Source: a virus. Taken from it: DNA of 64,000 bases. Positions 1 through 13,861 of this stretch are shown one piece after another. The notes under the pieces are model-generated. The model had not been told where the DNA came from and made no database searches. It saw only the letters and a program-made list of their open reading frames with translations. The stretch lies in the IMG/VR virus record IMGVR_UViG_3300045988_147522, one strand, 5' to 3'. A program made the translations under genes and the position numbers. Position 1 is the first letter of the stretch; each line of letters starts with the position of its first letter.

Positions 1-316
1 GCATTTGCATTGTCGAAAGACTGCTTTACTTAAAGTAAAGTATTAGAAAGGTTAGGAGCAGAAGACTCATCCGGATGGAGGATGCTGATGGAGGCGAAGT
101 GAATGAAATGCACGGTGATGAAAACGAGGAGCGGCGAGTATCTCACAAACACAAGGGTTACAATTGAAAGGAGATGTCGAATCCACGATTGGCCGCTGAA
201 ATAGCCACATCGAAGCTATGATTACATCAACCAATCCCAATGACCAAGCTTCCAGAAGCGTCTTCTCACTGCTACAATTGTATTTAGAAATGCCAAAATC
301 TAAGGAGGAATAGAAA
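1..316 (+). repeat. Copy A of a ~315-nt composite leader element (conserved arms, variable purine-rich core)
   Basis: Positions 1-66 match 13129-13194 at 65 of 66 nt. Blocks 232-255 and 279-311 are identical to blocks in copy B. The core is divergent. The element ends in the SD of the 317 ORF. Confidence 0.9.
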
Positions 317-1600
317 ATGGATTTAATTACAAATTTATACACTCGGAGTTGTTTTGATAGCCGTCTTACATTTGGAGATGGTTGCCCCAAGATAATCGAA
401 ACATTTGTCAAATGTGTTTACGAACCTTATTACACTAAGAACAGTGATTTACCATCTATATTTTTTGGTTGTGTTTCCGGCACACAGCCACCACAGAGAG
501 CCGCAACAGACAAAGCTGTTTATATATGGTATAACAACACAGAACCCACTATAGAGGGAATTAATAAGAAATTTAACTGTAGTGTGGAATCGTATGAGAA
601 TTATGATAAATATTGCGAATTAACCCACAATAAATCAAAAGGATGGGTTGGCGGTAATCAGTATATTTTTTGGACAGATCCGTTTAATGCAAAATGTGTA
701 GAAGAAACGATAGCTGTTTTTCTTATTCCGCTGTTTGACTTTGTTTGCACAGCAAAAGAGATCAAAAACAAATTCAAACCAATTGTTGATGAAATAAGCC
801 AAGGTTCGTATGATAAATTGTTCGAGTTAGCCGACAAAATTTCAGAAGAAAAAGGATTATTGAAAGTTGTGTTAAATGCTCAAATTGCCGATTTTACGCA
901 GTATAAAAAGAAACGCACTCTTGATCGACTACACGATAGGATTAAGAATTATGAATCGGATTATCGATATTATGTAGCAAATGCGACAAAGGTTTACGAA
1001 AACTTGTTGGATTGTAAAAAACAATTATCATTATATAACGACAACGATAATGATAATGCTGCATTGATAGATATGCTTACAAACAACAGTGTGATTTCTG
1101 ATGTAAAAATTGATGGAGGCGTCCTTGAGTTTGTAGTATGTAACCCGATTACTCAGTATGATGAGGATGCTTTTGCCGAAATATTAAAATCAGAAAATTC
1201 CACTATTAATAATATGCCAAGCGTAGGTAAGGATGTTTTATGTTGGATGGTTGATGGCAGAATTGATTTACTAACCGAATGTAGAATCTGTATAAATCTT
1301 GATAATAATTCTGTTGATGCTTATGAGACAAATCTATACGGTTATATGCCTCATCCTCATTTGGCTTTATTTAATTGTTTTGGGGGTTTTAGAATAGATA
1401 TTGAAACTGCATTAGCAGAAGGCAATATCTGCTATGCAATACAGCTTATTCTTACTGCGTCACAAAATTTGAATTTTATGGATTCTACGGTGATGAGCGA
1501 ATTGGGAACTCGGCTTAATGGGGCAGACTACTCGTGTATTATGGATAAGGAGTCTGGAGAAGTTATGACAGTAGACGAATGGAACGAAAGGAGAAAATAA
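317..1600 (+). CDS. Hypothetical protein with C-terminal E2/UBC-like domain (putative catalytic Cys354)
   Basis: SD AAGGAGG lies 8 nt upstream. The segment YMPHPHLALFNCFGGF...ICYAIQLILTASQNLNFMDS resembles the UBC HPN-loop-Cys followed by the helix ...SIQSLL..PN. First gene of the operon with JAB and E1. Confidence 0.45.
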   Translation: MDLITNLYTRSCFDSRLTFGDGCPKIIETFVKCVYEPYYTKNSDLPSIFFGCVSGTQPPQRAATDKAVYIWYNNTEPTIEGINKKFNCSVESYENYDKYCELTHNKSKGWVGGNQYIFWTDPFNAKCVEETIAVFLIPLFDFVCTAKEIKNKFKPIVDEISQGSYDKLFELADKISEEKGLLKVVLNAQIADFTQYKKKRTLDRLHDRIKNYESDYRYYVANATKVYENLLDCKKQLSLYNDNDNDNAALIDMLTNNSVISDVKIDGGVLEFVVCNPITQYDEDAFAEILKSENSTINNMPSVGKDVLCWMVDGRIDLLTECRICINLDNNSVDAYETNLYGYMPHPHLALFNCFGGFRIDIETALAEGNICYAIQLILTASQNLNFMDSTVMSELGTRLNGADYSCIMDKESGEVMTVDEWNERRK

Positions 1601-1601
1601 A

Positions 1602-2417
1602 ATGCAACTTTTAAAGATACCGACAGATATAGAAACACCTACAATATCTTTCACCCCATTAGCTTTTGCCAAAATGATGATGCTTGTTGAGGTAAATGAC
1701 AAAGAGGTGGGGTGGCATGGTACAGTCGAAAGGCAGAACAACAATTTTGTTATTACTGATATCTTTGTATATCCTCAAGTAGTTACTCCAACAACCGTTG
1801 AGCCTTCTCAGGAAGAGTATAACGAATGGCAGACTGAGTTACCAGACGATATACATAACAGTCTTAGATTCCACGGGCATTCTCATGTAAATATGGGAAC
1901 ATCGGCGTCATCTGTTGATGCTAAATTTCAGGAAGACATCGTGAAAATGATTGATAATACTGATTTTTATATCTTTATGATTATAAATAAAAAAGGTGAT
2001 TTTAATATATATCTTTATGATGGTGTGCTTAATTTAGCATATAAATCTACAAATAAGGACACTCAGCCTGAGATAACATTAAACACAAATAATATTCAAT
2101 CGTTTGGAAAAATACTTTGTGTTTCGCCTGAAGTTTACGACACATTGATGTCTTTCAAGGAAGAATCAAAAGATATGGTTACAGAACCAAAACCAGTATC
2201 GTATTCGTATCATGAATATCCTTACAACTACGGTAATGCTGGTGTAAAAAGCCAGAGTTCTATTAAACTATCTATTGGAGAGATTCAAGATATATTTGGT
2301 GTTGCTTATTTGGACGCCAAAGATGTACATGATGAGTTGAGTAATCTTGTACATAAAGGAGCGATAACTAACGATAGGGATTCATTGATTGAACAGGCAA
2401 GTCTGTATATATATTAA
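1602..2417 (+). CDS. JAB/MPN (JAMM) metallopeptidase
   Basis: Exact JAMM motif H93-S-H95-x7-S103-x2-D106 (HSHVNMGTSASSVD). An upstream Glu sits in KEVGWHG. Start is 1 nt after the previous stop. Confidence 0.8.
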   Translation: MQLLKIPTDIETPTISFTPLAFAKMMMLVEVNDKEVGWHGTVERQNNNFVITDIFVYPQVVTPTTVEPSQEEYNEWQTELPDDIHNSLRFHGHSHVNMGTSASSVDAKFQEDIVKMIDNTDFYIFMIINKKGDFNIYLYDGVLNLAYKSTNKDTQPEITLNTNNIQSFGKILCVSPEVYDTLMSFKEESKDMVTEPKPVSYSYHEYPYNYGNAGVKSQSSIKLSIGEIQDIFGVAYLDAKDVHDELSNLVHKGAITNDRDSLIEQASLYIY

Positions 2418-2431
2418 GGAGGTCTTACGGA

Positions 2432-3100
2432 ATGGATTTAAGTAAATTAGGAGATATTAACCCATATCAGAAGGAGTTGTCAACCACTATACATATAGTT
2501 GGATGCGGAAGCGTAGGTAGTACGCAGGCAGAGCTTCTTGCAAGATATGGCTTTTGCAAGTTTAAATTATATGATTTTGATTTCGTTGAAAGTAAAAATC
2601 TTTGCAACCAGATGTTTTTTAATTCTGATTTAAACCACAACAAAGCAGAGTCGTTAAAAAACATCTTGCTTTCCGTTAATCCTGATATTGAAGTTCAGGT
2701 GTTTGGTAAAGGTTATATTGATCAGCGACTTAACGGAATCGTAATTCTTTGTGCTGACAATATTGATTTGTGCAGAAATATTTGCAAGCAGAATAGACTT
2801 AATCCATACATAAAAGTAATGTTGAATTACCGTACTGCAAGATATGATGCACAGCACTATGCAGTAGAGTGGAGAGATAAACCAAGTGTGGATAATTTGA
2901 TTAAAACAATGAATTTCACACACGAAGAAGCAAAAGCCGAAACTCCAGTGTCAGCATGTGGAGTAGAGATTGGTGAATCTATTGTTGTAAGAGATATTGT
3001 ACTTAAAGGTACAACAAATCTGTTTAAATGGATTACCGAAAGAAAATTAAGCTCTTTGATTATATCTTCTCCATATAAATTTGACACGGTAGTGATGTAA
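2432..3100 (+). CDS. ThiF/MoeB/E1-like adenylyltransferase (short, Rossmann domain only)
   Basis: IHIVGCGSVGS (GxGxxG) followed by LYDFDFVESKNLCNQ, the D-x-D-x-V-x-x-S-N-L-x-R/N-Q type E1 signature. SD AAGGAGG. Confidence 0.75.
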   Translation: MDLSKLGDINPYQKELSTTIHIVGCGSVGSTQAELLARYGFCKFKLYDFDFVESKNLCNQMFFNSDLNHNKAESLKNILLSVNPDIEVQVFGKGYIDQRLNGIVILCADNIDLCRNICKQNRLNPYIKVMLNYRTARYDAQHYAVEWRDKPSVDNLIKTMNFTHEEAKAETPVSACGVEIGESIVVRDIVLKGTTNLFKWITERKLSSLIISSPYKFDTVVM

Positions 3101-3113
3101 AGGAGGGACAAGT

Positions 3114-4259
3114 ATGTGCTACTATGTGTGTTTGCCAAAAACCGAATCGAAGCCTAACATTTGGAGTTGGCTTGAAGGAGATATACATTCTCCGCAGTGG
3201 TTATGGGGTACTAAATCTGCGGCAGCCACAGTGACTCGCAGAGTTGATTTTATACCTGCGAGTGCAAAAGACAAATACAATGTCAATTTTATTGTTGGCA
3301 CATTGGACGCCTTTAATAAAAAATGGAGTTATCTTGGACAAGAAATTGAAAAACATTATTCTCATTTCTATATTCCAAAAAAGAAATTAGATGAATGTGG
3401 CAGAGTTAAATGGAGAGAAATCTGTGCTCCGGATGATGAATTATCTGAAGCATTGAAGGACTTAAAAGAGATTTTCGAGACTGCGGGTGTTTCATTACAT
3501 CACACCAACGCATACGCTTATGTTCGACATAGAACAGCCTCGGATGCGGTTTCCAAGCATCAGTATAACCATAGTCGCTGGTGGATAACAACTGATTTTC
3601 AAAACTTTTTTGGTAATACCACCAAAGAGTTTCTTATGTCTATGATGGCACAAATATTTCCATTTAGTGCAGTTATTGAACGAGATTTTGGAAAAGAGTG
3701 TTTAAGCAGGGCATTAGATTTATGTTTTCTTAATGGGGGTTTGCCACAAGGAACTCCAATCAGTCCAATGCTTACTAATATTATGATGATACCGTTTGAC
3801 TACATAATGACAAAAAAGTGTCGTGAAAAAGACTATATATATACCCGATATAGCGATGATATACAAGTTTCACACCGTAGGAAGTTTAATCCAGACGAAG
3901 TTCTTAGATTTATCCACGAAACACTAACTCAAATTCACGCTCCGTTTACAATTGAGAAAGAAAAAACAAAGTTTAAAAGTGGAAATCAGTTCGTATTAGG
4001 TGTTATGTATAATCAAAATTGCGACATTACAGTCGGTCATAAGAACAAAAAAGAGTTCAAAGCTACATTATTTAATTATATGTGCGATAGGCTAAACGGT
4101 AAAGTTTGGGAGTTACCACAACTCCAACAAATGATGGGTAAATTTGCATATTATTCGATGATTGAAAAAGAGTATTTTGAAAATGTAATGAAGGAATATT
4201 CTCGTAAATTTAAACAGGATGTTATGAAATGTATCAAAGCAGACTTGCGTAGATGCTAA
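3114..4259 (+). CDS. Reverse transcriptase (stand-alone, retron/Abi/DRT-like; not DGR-type)
   Basis: RT motifs in order: YIPKKK..GRVKWREICAP, TDFQNFF, LPQGTPISPMLTN, YTRYSDD (Y246-S-D-D), VLGV. SD AAGGAGGG. Confidence 0.85.
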   Translation: MCYYVCLPKTESKPNIWSWLEGDIHSPQWLWGTKSAAATVTRRVDFIPASAKDKYNVNFIVGTLDAFNKKWSYLGQEIEKHYSHFYIPKKKLDECGRVKWREICAPDDELSEALKDLKEIFETAGVSLHHTNAYAYVRHRTASDAVSKHQYNHSRWWITTDFQNFFGNTTKEFLMSMMAQIFPFSAVIERDFGKECLSRALDLCFLNGGLPQGTPISPMLTNIMMIPFDYIMTKKCREKDYIYTRYSDDIQVSHRRKFNPDEVLRFIHETLTQIHAPFTIEKEKTKFKSGNQFVLGVMYNQNCDITVGHKNKKEFKATLFNYMCDRLNGKVWELPQLQQMMGKFAYYSMIEKEYFENVMKEYSRKFKQDVMKCIKADLRRC

Positions 4260-4340: not shown

Positions 4341-4415
4341 TGAGCAGTCGCCAAGCGGTTAAGGCACTGGACTTTGACTCCAGTATCGTGGGTTCAATTC
4401 TCACCTGCTCAGCCA
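4341..4415 (+). tRNA. tRNA-Gln (anticodon TTG), CCA encoded
   Basis: Hand-folded cloverleaf. Acceptor tgagcag/ctgctca with U1-A72, D arm gcc-aagcggttaa-ggc, anticodon stem ctgga/tccag with loop cTTTGac, T arm gtggg-ttcaatt-ctcac. Confidence 0.85.
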
Positions 4416-4417
4416 AA

Positions 4418-4572
4418 CGGTATTGTGTAGCTTTATAACCTTGCGGTTCAAAATAAAAATCTACTATCATGGTAGAAAGACTTTATACTGATCAGTTACT
4501 CAGTTTGGCGTTGAATGGAACGGTGGTGTCCCTTGACTGTTGTTCCGTCAGCCTTCAATCTACACAATACCG
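4418..4572 (+). ncRNA. Candidate structured RNA nested between tRNAs, closed by a 13-bp perfect helix
   Basis: cggtattgtgtag (4418-4430) is the exact reverse complement of ctacacaataccg (4560-4572). The interior has at least 4 local hairpins. No SD-led ORF. It starts 2 nt after tRNA-Gln and ends 5 nt before the next tRNA. Confidence 0.4.
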
Positions 4573-4577
4573 AATAT

Positions 4578-4653
4578 GACACAGTAGTCCAACGGCAGAG
4601 ACAGCAGACTTAAAATCTGTACAGTGAGAGTTCAAATCTCTTCTGTGTCACCA
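4578..4653 (+). tRNA. tRNA with anticodon TAA (Leu by anticodon) but class-I architecture (5-nt variable loop), CCA encoded
   Basis: Perfect 7-bp acceptor gacacag/ctgtgtc, A73, anticodon stem gcaga/tctgt with loop cTTAAaa, T arm gagag-ttcaaat-ctctt. 76 nt in total. Confidence 0.7.
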
Positions 4654-4656
4654 TAT

Positions 4657-4733
4657 GGACTGTTAGCTCAACTGGTTAGAGCGTCAAACTCATAATTTGA
4701 GGGTACAGGGTTCGACTCCCTGACAGTCCACCA
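4657..4733 (+). tRNA. tRNA with anticodon CAT (elongator Met or Ile2/lysidine type), CCA encoded
   Basis: Acceptor ggactgt/acagtcc, D arm gctc-aactggtta-gagc, anticodon stem tcaaa/tttga with loop cTCATaa, T arm caggg-ttcgact-ccctg. Confidence 0.85.
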
Positions 4734-5170: not shown

Positions 5171-5862
5171 TGTCCAAAGTAGTTAAAAGTTACAAAGGTT
5201 TTAATAAAGATATGACTTGCAGAGGCTTTCAGTATAAAGAAGGAAAAGAATATGAAACAAGTAAAGCTGTTGTTTGCAATGAAGGTTTTCATGCATGTGG
5301 ACACCCTTTAGATTGTTTAAATTATTATCCGCCAAGTACAAGTGTATATCATGAAGTTGAACAGACAGGCGAATTTTCATCCGATTCTGGTAGTAGAGAT
5401 TCAAAAATTGCATCAACTAAGATTAAAATTGGTGCAAAATTAAGCATAGTTGGACTCGTTTAGGCTGCAATAGATTTCACCAAATCCAAAATCGTCACAA
5501 TACAGGATATTACAGGCTATAAGGGTGCGTCCTCAGCTACAGGCTATAAGGGTGTGTCCTCAGCTACGGGAGATTACGGTGCGTCCTCAGTTACGGGAGA
5601 TTGTAGTGTATCCTCAGTTACAAGCTATAATGGTGTATCCTCAGCTGATAATTCTACATCTGTTGCAGTAGCGTGGGGTTATGAAAGCAAGGCAAAAGGT
5701 TGTATTGGTGCGCATATTGTTTGTGCTGAATGGAAATATGATAATCTTAATAACGATTGGGGTTTTGTTGGGGCAAAGATGTCAATAGTTGACGGCGTAA
5801 AGATTAAAGCAGATACATATTACACTTTACGAGACGGCGAATTTGTGGAGGTAAAAGAATGA
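5170..5862 (+). pseudogene. Repeat-containing protein (Cys/His-rich N-domain KGF..DMTCRGFQY..GFHAC, 9-aa TG(Y/D)xGxSS(A/V) repeats) interrupted by one in-frame TAG at 5461-5463
   Basis: ORFs 5170-5463 and 5554-5862 share a frame. There is no other stop between 5464 and 5553, and the repeat array starts in that interval. The second part has no SD. Confidence 0.65.
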
Positions 5863-6142: not shown

Positions 6143-6433
6143 TTGATAATATTCGTAGAGAAAAACCAACTTTTTAAGGTTGGCGATAAGGTTAAAATAC
6201 TTCCAACAATACTAACAGACTATCCTGATTTTCCGTATGTAGGAGTAGTAGGCAGAGTGTGTGTCGTGAAGGATAGTGATGTAAATATAGGTGTTGAGTT
6301 TTCGACTCCTTGCGATTACTTACACAGCTGTGACGGAGCAGCTAAGTCCCATTCTAGCTGGTGGTGTCTTAGGAGGCATTTGGAATTTATACCTGATGAT
6401 AATTTGCCAGATATTTGGGAATATATTAAATAA
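6143..6433 (+). CDS. Hypothetical protein
   Basis: TTG start after agagga. Codirectional packing. Confidence 0.45.
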   Translation: MIIFVEKNQLFKVGDKVKILPTILTDYPDFPYVGVVGRVCVVKDSDVNIGVEFSTPCDYLHSCDGAAKSHSSWWCLRRHLEFIPDDNLPDIWEYIK

Positions 6434-13076: not shown

Positions 13077-13106
13077 ATCGTAAATACATATAAGAATTTG
13101 AAACAA

Positions 13107-13127
13107 GGGAGAGTACGCTCTCCCTTT
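13107..13127 (+). terminator. Hairpin terminator (gggagag-tacg-ctctccc, then ttt)
   Basis: 7-bp GC-rich stem followed by a short T run. Lies immediately upstream of leader copy B. Confidence 0.5.
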
Positions 13128-13128
13128 G

Positions 13129-13447
13129 GCATTTGCATTGTCGAAAGACTGCTTTACTTAAAGTAAAGTATTAGAAAGGTTAGAAGCAGAAGACACCCGG
13201 TAAGAATGATGCAGAATTCTCAAGTGATGCAGGCAGGTTCGACTGCGACCAAGAAAGCGAGAGATAACAATCAAGCCCAAGATTCGCTGCTGAAATGGAT
13301 TTACAAACCCACAATGTACAACTGAAAAAGCCACATACTGGTTACGATTACCTCAGCAATCCCAATGACCAAGCTTCCAGCATTCGTCATCTGGCTGCCA
13401 CCATCTGTATTTAGAAATGCCAAAATCTAAGGAGGAATTAAGTAAAT
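13129..13447 (+). repeat. Copy B of the ~315-nt composite leader element
   Basis: Same conserved 5' arm, the 24-nt block caatcccaatgaccaagcttccag and the 33-nt SD-proximal block as copy A. Confidence 0.9.
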
Positions 13448-13861
13448 ATGTTTACCTTAACTAAAATTGATAGTATACCAGACAATTATCAAAAATATCA
13501 TATACATAATAATTTACTAATATCTAATAGAATACGAAGTCATCTGGTTCAGAGATTTCCTGATTGTCATTGGGAAGTAACAAACAATGATATTTATATT
13601 AATGTGAGTCTTAAATCTTCACCTTGGGAGAAAAATAGTAAAATTGTTCATGCGATTGCTGATTATGCGTATTATTATGCAGATAGCTATAATTACGATC
13701 ACACTGATATAAATTCTGATTATTGTAATATGAATTTTTTCGGGGTGTACAAGAACAATATTATTGCGAAAGATTATACACAATTAGGAGCAACAAGCAA
13801 AACTCAACAGATGGAGCTTGAATTTATGCGTCAGTATAATGAAACATTTGCAAATGAATAA
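13448..13861 (+). CDS. Hypothetical protein (single gene behind leader copy B)
   Basis: Preceded by the leader SD. Flanked by terminators at 13107 and 13871. Confidence 0.6.
   Translation: MFTLTKIDSIPDNYQKYHIHNNLLISNRIRSHLVQRFPDCHWEVTNNDIYINVSLKSSPWEKNSKIVHAIADYAYYYADSYNYDHTDINSDYCNMNFFGVYKNNIIAKDYTQLGATSKTQQMELEFMRQYNETFANE

Follow-up and report, generated by a model that had tools for sequence, protein, structure and literature searches.

The four abutting genes at positions 317 to 4259 of the window (the whole stretch of DNA analysed, 64,000 nucleotides from a gut prophage) belong to a conserved phage cassette of six genes, of which they are the last four; the cassette is widespread and undescribed. 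In order, the cassette encodes a ~130-aa protein ('up'), a 75-77-aa ubiquitin-like (Ubl-like) protein, a 430-500-aa Cys-domain protein, a JAMM peptidase, a minimal ThiF-type E1 and a retron-clade reverse transcriptase (RT), and the RT is neighboured by structured non-coding RNA elements. We regard it as reasonably probable that the Ubl, the E1, the JAMM peptidase and a Cys carrier are tied to the retron-type RT as one phage cassette system, the function of which we infer from sequence. The initial annotation had recognised the four genes, considered them phage-borne and known of no system combining an RT with E1, E2 and JAB proteins. Indeed, all four ORFs are present (Table 1), gene context places the element in a phage or prophage, and no description of an RT together with E1/JAB was found in the searchable literature. 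The genes lie on the plus strand with gaps of 1, 14 and 13 nt, and the abutment of the four genes in clade A (1-14 nt gaps) suggests a single operon with translational coupling.

Table 1. Coordinates of the features described in the window.
Feature	Position	Strand	Basis
Non-coding leader, copy 1 of a two-copy element	1-316	+	second copy, clade A comparison
427-aa Cys-domain protein; candidate thioester carrier ('E2-like', unproven)	317-1600	+	ORF, family alignment, AF2 model
JAMM/JAB metallopeptidase, 271 aa	1602-2417	+	JAMM residues, profile matches
Minimal ThiF/MoeB-type E1-like adenylating enzyme, 222 aa	2432-3100	+	Pfam ThiF 3e-19
Retron-clade RT, 381 aa	3114-4259	+	Pfam RVT_1, PADLOC, NCBIfam, PDB
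tRNA-Gln (UUG), first of the tRNA cluster after the RT	4341-4415	+	ARAGORN, Rfam
Structured non-coding element between tRNA-Gln and tRNA-Leu	4418-4572	+	folding z-score
tRNA-Leu (UAA) and tRNA-Met (CAU)	4578-4733	+	ARAGORN, Rfam
Leader element copy 2, upstream of an unrelated 137-aa ORF (13448-13861)	13096-13445	+	similarity to copy 1

The linkage of these genes was surveyed in 136 unique E1-anchored loci, 110 of which had room upstream, and the RT was counted over 110 loci with room downstream. The large protein and JAB were found in all 110 assessable loci, 'up' in 109 and a Ubl homologue preceding the large-protein gene in 107. The RT was located downstream of the E1 in 108 of 110, with E1 identities down to ~40%. 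In a synteny control across 55 other diverse loci, homologues of the module genes occurred in 58-98%, while the 959 flanking ORFs averaged 3% and none exceeded 50%. As the flanking ORFs are not widely conserved, the genes form a cassette and do not merely reflect genome-wide synteny, and the co-occurrence of JAB, ThiF-type E1 and RT that the initial annotation wished to see surveyed is thus a persistent one. Possibly all the loci come from a single broad family of phages of gut Clostridia.

The same annotation had reported that no ubiquitin-like gene was present, having searched for small ORFs ending in Gly or Gly-Gly. In relatives, however, a 75-77-aa Ubl-like gene is located directly upstream together with the gene for 'up', an arrangement that four clades share and that independent gene calls reproduce. 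The apparent absence results from the window cut, which includes only 316 nt upstream of the first gene; in close relatives (e.g. L003 and L242) a 77-aa Ubl-like gene stops ~38 nt before the base matching window position 1. No Ubl copy was detected by tblastn elsewhere in the 64-kb window. The search rule was in any case unfit and would have missed the gene, since the protein ends in Ala. Among 81 distinct sequences the C-terminal core is K-A-D-[N/G]-[A/G] followed by 0-3 extra residues, so that the end is mostly Asn-Ala, or else Gly-Ala, rather than Gly-Gly; the penultimate residue is Asn in many sequences and Gly or Cys in many others. These variable tails resemble precursors trimmed by a peptidase. 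The best PDB matches of the Ubl profile are SAMP2 (0.008), PF1061 (0.011), which we take to be MoaD/ThiS-like, and ubiquilin UBLs, and there are weak Pfam matches to DUF2604 and TUG-UBL1; together with the C-terminus, they make the protein Ubl-like. The 'up' and Ubl genes duplicate together as pairs. With a Ubl-like gene in the cassette, the earlier idea that the RT serves as cargo in place of a Ubl or CD-NTase loses its basis, and yet the RT could be a conjugation target.

In the large protein, the N-terminal region is variable, the centre forms a coiled coil (~180-245), and Cys354 lies in a domain of ~185 aa at the C-terminus. The motifs noted earlier are all in place, namely P345-H346-P347-H348 and C354, then AIQLILTASQNLNFMDS. 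The family forms 2,121 clusters at 50% identity, and among 143 sequences Cys354 is the sole invariant column, N346, H348, G356, S381 and N386 being nearly invariant. Some features agree with the assignment as an E2 with a UBC fold: the Cys is invariant, it has Asn at -8 as in E2 enzymes, and the AF2 model of the C-terminal domain (pLDDT 95, pTM 0.89) predicts a UBC-like sequence of elements (alpha, beta1-2, insert, beta3-4, loop, Cys, three helices). The check suggested for this protein, AlphaFold with Foldseek, gave no significant PDB match despite the good model (best E 0.24; RWD domains at TM 0.3-0.4). Similarly, hhalign against canonical E2s reached a probability of 0.3% (E 0.2), its sole local match aligning N-x7-C with the HPN-x7-C of E2s; Prok-E2 and UQ_con of Pfam matched none of 59 members; the 427-aa protein had no match in Pfam, PADLOC, PHROG or NCBIfam; and no PDB match was obtained by sequence. 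As an E2 the protein is therefore unproven, failing every statistical test run.

The remaining enzyme calls of the initial annotation were upheld. In the JAB protein, a metallopeptidase part of ~150 aa at the N-terminus is followed by a variable C-terminal extension, and the JAMM residues H93-x-H95-x7-S103-x2-D106 with the upstream E35 are invariant in 17 diverse homologues. Its profile matches Rpn11 (1e-4) and CSN5 (0.3) in the PDB, and the Pfam JAB match (0.005) is under the cutoff. It is likely an enzyme that trims the Ubl C-terminus and/or deconjugates the Ubl. The E1 has the nucleotide-binding fold of ThiF and contains GCGSVGS and DFDFVESKNLCNQ. Its best curated matches are ThiS adenylyltransferases (NCBIfam ThiF 1.3e-20, under cutoff), then MoeB, SAMP-activating E1 and TcdA; relatives in the PDB are UBA5 (1.7e-14), MoeB, Uba1, MccB (4e-10), Cap2, ThiF and PaaA (2e-7). 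Cys176 is invariant within a PxSxCG motif, and Asn59, also invariant, occupies the position of the canonical NxxR arginine in the alignment with UBA5. No E2-recruiting domain is recognisable in its 222 aa, nor do CxxC zinc motifs occur in the sequence.

The RT carries QGTPISP and YSDD (Pfam RVT_1 3e-16) after an N-terminal extension of ~70 aa that is conserved within the family. A profile search against RT clades had been proposed, and the closest are retron RTs: RT_II-A (6e-42) and RT_I-A (1e-37) in PADLOC, retron_St85_RT in NCBIfam (1.5e-46; 159 bits vs a curated cutoff of 235) and, in the PDB, the Ec83 RT (3e-15) followed by Ec78, Ec67 and Ec86. On these sequence matches the RT is assigned to the retron clade.

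The non-coding DNA taken earlier for a shared leader is indeed non-coding, but it is a repeated element, the two copies of which are 75-77% identical; recombination between them accounts for the rearranged relative L016. Conservation is confined to the 5' ~95 nt and the 3' ~90 nt, between which the sequence varies. In clade A (n=3), identity is 0.60-0.69 in the most divergent ~120 nt of the interior and 0.78-0.82 in the next ~90 nt, compared with 0.93-1.0 in the conserved leader ends and the Ubl 3' end and 0.84-1.0 at the start of the large-protein gene. GGCATTT (from 1 nt before the window) may pair with AAATGCC (~289-295) over 7 bp to close the element, and a Shine-Dalgarno sequence, AAGGAGG, is found at ~303-309. 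The leader is not significantly structured (z -0.2 and -0.5), and with 3.7 bits it is no match to R1, a covariance model derived from the units that other clades carry.

Three tRNAs lie downstream of the RT, and other clades also have tRNA arrays there; a Thg1-like gene occurs near the cassette in relatives. Within the window, the element following tRNA-Gln is the strongest candidate for an ncRNA template of the retron type. Its predicted 13-bp closing stem, CGGTATTGTGTAG / CTACACAATACCG, surrounds three small hairpins and one longer (MFE -49.2 kcal/mol, z = -4.2, 0/200 shuffles as good). The stem is kept in 14/14 clade-A variants, with no compensatory changes among them, and the element has no Rfam match. 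The same layout is seen in the other short-gap clade directly after the RT stop (L198, 9841-10025; 15-bp stem, z = -10.7), where a G follows a1 and a G precedes a2. In other clades the candidate templates are multi-copy units of ~300 nt with hypervariable interiors. In pre-RT units the a1/a2 stems covary and hairpin 2 has compensatory changes in 6/6 predicted pairs; as the unit scan selected for a G after a1, the invariance of this G in alignment A11 is by construction. Since they occur in several copies and are not confined to the RT, the units of these other clades may be something other than retron templates.

According to the mechanism we propose, the JAMM peptidase would trim the Ubl tail to expose ...D-(N/G)-(A/G), and the E1 would adenylate the trimmed C-terminus. 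The Ubl would then pass as a thioester, possibly via Cys176 of the E1, to Cys354 of the large protein, acting as an E2-like carrier or ligase, and be joined to a target, for which the candidates are 'up' (whose gene duplicates with that of the Ubl), the RT, and a host or competing-phage protein. As in retrons, the RT and its ncRNA might give rise to a product, cDNA or RNA-DNA, by which the Ubl activity is sensed or gated. The cassette would thus be a retron-like system with a Ubl-conjugation machine as effector or regulator. Its role is most likely inter-phage exclusion or counter-defence, preferred because the carriers are temperate and large gut phages; this is the least certain step, and being present almost universally, at a fixed position, within a single broad lineage of phages would also suit a core role in the life cycle rather than accessory defence.

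It is conceivable, but unlikely, that two independent neighbours, a Ubl/Cys-protein/JAB/E1 system and a separate RT/RNA retroelement or defence gene, have been kept together by shared descent. The E1-RT distance indeed ranges from 11 nt to 7.2 kb, unrelated ORFs may intervene (e.g. one of 275 aa in L052), L103 and L161 have the five other genes with no RT within the available sequence, and a single phage family may underlie all loci. Against such a coincidence stand the near-constant RT at E1 identities down to ~40%, no flanking gene being present in even half of the loci, and the operon-like abutment in clade A.

Quite unlikely, too, is a sulfur-carrier or biosynthetic pathway instead of protein conjugation, in which a ThiS/MoaD/SAMP-like carrier is adenylated and converted to a thiocarboxylate by the ThiF-like E1, JAB exposes its C-terminus as in Mec+/CysO and QbsD/QbsE, and the Cys-domain protein relays persulfide or sulfur to a tRNA or nucleic-acid modification. 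The minimal ThiF- and MoeB-like E1 with its best curated matches, the SAMP2 and PF1061 matches of the Ubl, the tRNA arrays and the nearby Thg1-like gene agree with this pathway. The mostly Asn-Ala or Gly-Ala terminus, in place of the Gly-Gly typical of sulfur carriers, does not, and neither do the lack of CxxC motifs in the E1 and of any detected rhodanese, cysteine desulfurase or thiolase domain in the cassette; the tight RT linkage and the co-duplicating 'up'/Ubl pairs would be left unexplained. MccB and PaaA among the E1 relatives, the frequent penultimate Asn and the atypical E1 active-site motif might instead point to peptide-nucleotide or tailoring chemistry at the end of the small protein, on its C-terminal Asn or Ala (succinimide, phosphoramidate adduct), rather than activation for transfer to proteins. 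This we find highly improbable, given that Asn is not required, that the substrate is a folded domain of 75 aa and not a short peptide, and that the cassette showed no genes for export or immunity.

Taken as Ubl conjugation coupled to a retron-type RT, the cassette can be compared with four known kinds of systems. Sulfur-carrier and SAMPylation systems with JAMM partners include CysO-Mec+, TtuB-TtuC-TtuD and SAMP-UbaA. Like them, the cassette has a small beta-grasp protein, a minimal ThiF/MoeB-like E1 and a JAMM peptidase, and the best sequence matches of both its Ubl and E1 are in this group; it differs in having no Gly-Gly terminus or sulfurtransferase partners and in possessing the Cys-domain protein, 'up' and the RT. 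Retrons, of which Mestre et al. reportedly distinguished 13 types in 2020 (RT, msr-msd ncRNA and effector), share with it the nearest RT relatives and structured RNAs beside the RT that are closed by a stem with a G following its 5' arm, and the tightly linked accessory genes could be the effector. To our knowledge, E1, JAB or Ubl partners occur in no described retron type. Furthermore, the cassette RT falls below the curated retron cutoff, the RNA units of most clades are ~300 nt long, multi-copy and internally hypervariable, and msDNA is only predicted.

Type II CBASS likewise has E1-like and JAB enzymes that regulate a nucleotide-polymerising enzyme from their own operon, a CD-NTase there and putatively an RT here. 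The E1 region matches PADLOC Cap2 models at about 1e-15 (3e-15 to the E1 part of Cap2); these E1-E2 models and NCBIfam 6A-MBL cap2_3, under cutoff, are the sole defence-model matches and reflect the shared E1 fold. The cassette, however, has no CD-NTase, its E1 and Cys protein are separate genes (vs the Cap2 E1-E2 fusion, accompanied by the Cap3 JAB), and its Ubl is free-standing, so that the polymerase need not be the conjugated species. The Bil (bacterial ISG15-like) operon class of Ubl, E2, JAB and E1 is said to have been described by Iyer, Burroughs and Aravind, and its defence function was reportedly established by Millman in 2022 and by Hor and Chambers in 2024. The cassette resembles it in the small Ubl, the Cys-bearing carrier, the JAMM peptidase, the ThiF-type E1, a similar gene order and C-terminally tailed Ubl precursors that JAB could trim. 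In contrast to Bil, the carrier is long (430-500 aa), contains a coiled coil and has a Cys domain in which neither Foldseek nor hhalign recognises a UBC fold. Asn-Ala or Gly-Ala forms the Ubl terminus, the minimal E1 has Asn instead of the canonical Arg, and the phage-borne cassette adds the retron-clade RT and, as a conserved partner, the ~130-aa 'up' gene.

The four cassette genes of the window are separated by 1, 14 and 13 nt (see the table), and all the motifs that the initial annotation quoted for their products were found in the window. The window derives from a phage, as it also encodes a DNA polymerase, a primase-helicase, NrdD, integrases and tail proteins. Near-identical copies sit in contigs of 413-493 kb beside an integrase, and the clade of the window (clade A) is therefore regarded as temperate. 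When the GenBank phage collection was searched with the region, no relative was found beyond the tRNAs.

Coordinates of the cassette genes and neighbouring features in the window
Feature	Coordinates	Strand	Product	Remarks
Leader	1-316			non-coding, before the large-protein gene
Large protein	317-1600	+	427 aa	
JAB	1602-2417	+	271 aa	
E1-like	2432-3100	+	222 aa	
RT	3114-4259	+	381 aa	
tRNA-Gln, tRNA-Leu, tRNA-Met	4341-4733			after RT
Structured candidate element	4418-4572			between tRNA-Gln and tRNA-Leu; z = -4.2
Second copy of leader	13096-13445			

Related loci (L-numbers below) were collected by scanning GTDB (one genome per species) and IMG/VR with an E1 profile, the family alignment of the large protein being too divergent for locus finding. 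The scan yielded 79 loci from genomes, mostly MAGs of gut Clostridia, and 306 viral ones, from which 80 were retained. The collection, comprising 136 unique E1 loci, was searched with HMMs for six proteins: the four of the window, a ubiquitin-like (Ubl-like) protein and a further small protein here called 'up'. Among the 110 E1 loci with enough upstream sequence the large protein and JAB are always present, 'up' is found in 109 and the Ubl-like protein in 107. The linkage of the RT with E1 and JAB that the initial annotation had noted in a single phage is thus borne out across genomes, the RT being present in 108 of the 110 loci with enough downstream sequence. In nearly every locus the genes run in the order up, Ubl, large protein, JAB, E1, RT; occasionally the first two are swapped, and in three loci (L087, L159, L161) this pair is tandemly duplicated. 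As a control for plain genome synteny, 56 diverse long loci were compared. For each module gene, homologues occur in 58-98% of the other loci, whereas among the 959 flanking ORFs the average is 3% and the maximum stays below 50%. The six genes therefore form a conserved cassette in variable surroundings, and this conservation amid variable flanks is the strongest argument for a putative functional tie between the RT and the rest. Judged from the sequences, the association of the RT with Ubl-type genes is real and widespread. It is also apparently new to the literature, in which a search turned up no paper describing an RT alongside E1, JAB or Ubl genes.

The view that no ubiquitin-like gene accompanies the operon was wrong. 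A gene for a Ubl-like protein of 75-77 aa lies upstream in the relatives, beyond the window edge, and it seemed to be missing because the cut of the window leaves only 316 nt before the large-protein gene. Among viral contigs, 27 close relatives were recovered first, and after these distant ones, whose RTs are 37-42% identical. In each of the four clades looked at initially, a 75-77-aa ORF lies before the large-protein gene, and an ORF of 130-150 aa, 'up', lies before that. The small ORF of L003 reads MKSIKVQ...ILASVVKADCA, and in the alignment of this locus with the window the stop codon of the small gene and a terminator-like hairpin end approximately 38 nt before window position 1. Independent gene calls in other assemblies gave 128 aa, 77 aa, a gap of 351 nt, and then 427, 271, 222 (ThiF) and 381 (RVT_1) aa. 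No copy of the small gene was found elsewhere in the 64-kb window. The adjacent Ubl gene is absent in some relatives for secondary reasons, either insertion of an IS200/IS605 TnpB or recombination between leader copies. The TnpB gene (336 aa, IS200/IS605-type) is located between the Ubl and large-protein genes in several close relatives (L004 327-1337; L013 120-935; L008 between 5622 and 8000), and the contigs of two relatives break within it.

The 81 distinct Ubl-like sequences share a C-terminal core, K-A-D-[N/G]-[A/G], often followed by one to three variable residues (...DNA/R, ...DGA/RC, ...DGG/CC, the slash marking the end of the core). The final residue is mostly Ala rather than Gly, and few of the sequences end in GG. 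Variable residues beyond a conserved core would fit the pattern of Ubl precursors trimmed by a peptidase. The best matches of the family profile in the PDB were SAMP2 (0.008) and PF1061 (0.011), both ubiquitin-like proteins, followed by ubiquilin UBLs (0.47), and weak matches to DUF2604 and TUG-UBL1 were obtained with Pfam. Profile searches with the 'up' protein, including Pfam and NCBIfam, gave nothing informative.

In the JAB family, 17 diverse members all keep E35, H93, H95, S103 and D106, leaving the E...HxHx7Sx2D motif intact; the family profile matches Rpn11 at 1e-4, and the 271-aa protein has a weak Pfam JAB match (0.005). The E1 was recognised by Pfam ThiF (3e-19) and matched the PADLOC Cap2 models in their E1 part only (3e-15), and its relatives in the PDB are UBA5, MoeB, Uba1, TcdA, MccB, Cap2 and ThiF. 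Invariant in the E1 family are the glycine-rich loop, DxD, Lys71, Asp109 and the cysteine of PxSxCG (Cys176), which lies in a C-terminal half specific to the family. In the alignment to UBA5, Asn59, also invariant family-wide, takes the place of the arginine of the canonical NxxR(Q) motif.

The large protein, previously annotated as an E2-like enzyme, belongs to a family of 2,121 clusters at 50% identity, most members of which are 440-500 aa long; in each, a variable N-terminus is followed by a coiled coil and a C-terminal domain. Among 143 sequences Cys354 is the only invariant column; the consensus around it is Y-x-P-N-P-H-I-x-x-Y-x-C-L-G, with Asn at -8. A confident fold was obtained only for the C-terminal domain (188 residues) with the 143-sequence alignment (pLDDT 95, pTM 0.89); the AF2 model of the full-length 427-aa protein, made with a shallow alignment, had a pLDDT of 49 and its Foldseek matches were meaningless. 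The predicted domain consists of a helix, two strands, a two-helix insert, two strands and an N/H loop, after which come the cysteine, three helices, a small beta-hairpin and a helix. This order of elements and the Asn at -8 are UBC-like, N77 and C85 of UbcH5 having the counterpart spacing. This much speaks for an E2, as does the invariant cysteine, but no significant UBC match was obtained. Foldseek with the C-terminal model found nothing significant in the PDB (best E 0.24; RWD domains at TM 0.3-0.4), and from the viral library came one uncharacterised family member and nothing else. With hhalign, four canonical E2s were matched at a probability of 0.3%, the sole local alignment placing the N-x7-C motif over HPN-x7-C. 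None of 59 large-protein members matched the Pfam E2 families, nor did the 427-aa protein match anything in Pfam, PADLOC, PHROGs or NCBIfam. Because the statistical tests give no support, the protein is not called an E2 here, and we refer to it as a candidate thioester carrier, whose fold may be new or a divergent UBC-like one. Weak Foldseek matches to ChlaDUB and Ulp1 (TM ~0.2) raised the alternative of a CE-clan protease, which was rejected in view of the noise-level TM-scores and of the short distance, 6 residues, between the conserved His and the Cys.

The RT had been described as retron/Abi/DRT-like, and its best profile matches are indeed retron RTs. In PADLOC all the best matches are of this kind (RT_II-A 6e-42, RT_I-A 1e-37), and the nearest solved relatives are the RTs of retrons Ec83 (3e-15), Ec78, Ec67 and Ec86. 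The match to NCBIfam retron_St85_RT (1.5e-46, 159 bits), however, is below the curated cutoff of 235.

In most clades the RT gene is preceded by 250-450 nt of non-coding DNA holding a structured unit. The 5' part of the unit is composed of an arm of 7-14 nt (a1), a G (a selection criterion of the scan by which units were collected), a variable hairpin and a second hairpin starting with GCUU and ending with AAGUAAC. The 3' part contains a variable interior, (A/U)UAG and the arm complementary to a1 (a2), with 18-38 nt between the end of a2 and the RT start codon. Arm sequences vary from lineage to lineage, and even among the copies of a single genome, yet they remain complementary; the a1/a2 stems covary, and in hairpin 2 compensatory changes are seen in all six RNAalifold pairs. 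With a covariance model built from the 5' module (R1), each locus yielded several copies, always on the + strand; they lie behind E1, behind the RT stop codon and farther downstream. R1-type units are significantly structured (mean z -2.6), and Rfam has no family for the units, which are ~300 nt long, or for the structured element of the window. Among the 31 near-identical phages of clade B, the unit ends and flanking genes are 92-100% identical and the ~200-nt interior 48-65%. Multiple copies flank the RT in most clades, often in back-to-back arrays (L053 7580-7914; L131 9590-15650; L052 7461-9614; L108 2168-4316; and many other loci). At both junctions each unit looks like a retron ncRNA. 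Two other explanations of the units were rejected. As MITE-like elements with fixed terminal repeats they are unlikely, since copies in the same genome have different, self-complementary ends. As small protein genes they lack a coding signal, stop-free frames being little more frequent than in shuffles (20-23% against 8-9%; 61 units, both strands). Long stop-free frames occur on the minus strand across the leader (window 67-411) and a pre-RT unit (L053 7560-7895); these are probably non-coding, because the enrichment is small and found on both strands.

In clade A the E1-RT gap is 13 nt, and no R1 match was found in the 64-kb window, which offers two candidate elements. One is the leader with its second copy, in which the ends are conserved and the interior is variable, and which a 7-bp pair may close. 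The same terminator hairpin stands before both copies, which are near-identical over the 5' ~95 nt and the 3' ~90 nt and divergent in between, and in relatives (L016) recombination between them has led to genome rearrangement. By eye, a1, a G, two hairpins and a UAG before a2 can be traced in the leader as in the pre-RT units of other clades. The leader was nevertheless rejected as a retron ncRNA homologous to R1-type units, R1 scoring only 3.7 bits and folding being no better than in shuffles; the likeness is one of organisation only, and homology is not claimed. A hand-written descriptor (a1, G, hairpin 1, hairpin 2, a2) was useless, with 19 matches in the window and ~16 in shuffles. The best candidate for an RT template in the window is the structured element in the tRNA cluster, where three small hairpins and one longer one are closed off by a perfect 13-bp stem, the G being paired. 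It is preferred because L198, from the only other short-gap clade, has, immediately behind the stop codon of its RT gene, an element laid out in the same way; its stem is 15 bp long, a1 is followed and a2 preceded by a G, and one hairpin has arms of 27 nt (z = -10.7). Compensatory pairs were not found in the window element among clade A sequences, as these are too uniform. Alternatively, the element could be one of the small RNAs that accompany tRNA arrays, as the skipping-rope RNA does in L131.

The surroundings of the cassette have several features of their own. The RT is directly upstream of tRNA arrays in several clades; in L131 (11861-13607) the array has more than 12 genes and contains the skipping-rope RNA (RF02924, 69 bits). 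According to ARAGORN the third tRNA of the cluster is Met (CAU) in the window and Leu (UAA) in the close prophage relative L242 (14025-14412), which may be an anticodon switch between near-identical phages. Downstream of the tRNAs, two overlapping ORFs at 5525-5862 contain short periodic peptide repeats (PQLQAI/PQLREI, SSVTGD/SSATGD), indicative of a putative tandem DNA repeat of ~21 nt inside a small gene. Around the cassette there are also families of small paralogous ORFs (window 6143-6433; L003 5174-5982; L053 9874-11517). Those of clade A have an N-terminus of the 'KVGDKVKILP' type, and those of clade B form a series of ~95-140 aa ending in the motif 'SFD(E/D)L(I/L)'. In addition, the JAB gene of one prophage variant is broken up into ORFs of 63 and 174 aa, and a Thg1-like gene (tRNA-His guanylyltransferase family) is found near the cassette in several clade A relatives (coordinates for these two observations: L244 11286-12045; L016 1382-2164; L242 21146-21284).

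In the best-supported reading, the phage cassette would couple a Ubl pathway to a retron-type RT and its RNA. The JAB would trim the Ubl, the E1 would activate it and Cys354 of the large protein would carry it, and the conjugation machine might serve as effector or regulator of the retron-like system, or the reverse. On the whole the initial annotation was largely right, and the association stands; the claimed absence of a Ubl does not, and the E2 is unproven. That two separate systems merely share a location is unlikely, as the conservation control speaks against it. A sulfur-carrier pathway of the ThiS/MoaD type, which the sequence affinities of the E1 and Ubl and the tRNA context favour, is rather improbable. 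Such pathways have a Gly-Gly carrier and sulfurtransferase partners, whereas the Ubl-like terminus is not Gly-Gly and sulfurtransferases are absent from the cassette, in the proteins of which Pfam and NCBIfam revealed no rhodanese or desulfurase domains. Peptide tailoring of the kind performed by MccB, one of the E1 relatives, seems very improbable.

A more elaborate form of the coupling, by which the cassette would found a class of protein-tagging systems tied to a retroelement, is a long shot: the RT might read a repertoire of RNA units, the cDNAs of which would programme or gate a non-canonical Ubl conjugation on a Cys carrier of new fold. The units would then be conserved ends with exchangeable hypervariable interiors of ~200 nt, several per genome in most clades. 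The Ubl could, for example, be placed onto a sequence-specified nucleic-acid-protein complex, or onto the RT or cDNA itself. If the link between the two parts of the cassette is functional, it would represent a new type of retron or of Ubl system, a new candidate thioester-carrier fold and a tractable system for the mutual regulation of a nucleic-acid-making enzyme and a protein-tagging pathway. It would also suggest that ubiquitin-like chemistry is used by phages themselves, beyond their hosts. The Cys-protein family, with ~2,100 clusters at 50% identity, is without Pfam, PDB or literature annotation, and the RNA units, multi-copy and hypervariable between their conserved ends, are a puzzle in their own right.

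Bacterial Ubl conjugation (Bil, CBASS Cap2/Cap3) and retron-type RTs are not known to have been reported together before, and here they meet in a cassette tightly conserved in hundreds of gut phage and prophage genomes. With Bil-type systems the cassette shares the JAMM/JAB metallopeptidase; an E2 with a UBC fold and catalytic Cys was not recognised in the large protein by Foldseek, hhalign or Pfam. The Ubl of a Bil-type system is a small beta-grasp protein whose C-terminal Gly is exposed or can be exposed by JAB, and its E1 is a ThiF-family adenylation domain with the canonical ATP-binding residues; the Ubl-like protein of the cassette mostly ends in Ala, and the E1 has Asn59 at the position of the canonical Arg. 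Type II CBASS is defined by a CD-NTase and Cap2, a fusion of E1 and E2. No CD-NTase match was found for the four window proteins, nor by Pfam or NCBIfam for 'up' and Ubl of the relatives, and unlike in Cap2 the E1 and the Cys protein are products of separate genes. The effector set of a described retron type is likewise lacking: the three window proteins upstream of the RT matched none of the PADLOC retron-effector models, and no described retron type is known to have E1, JAB or Ubl partners. Retrons also have an adjacent msr-msd ncRNA, marked by a1/a2 inverted repeats and a priming G, and produce branched msDNA. The R1-type units, too, differ from known retrons in being multi-copy and hypervariable.
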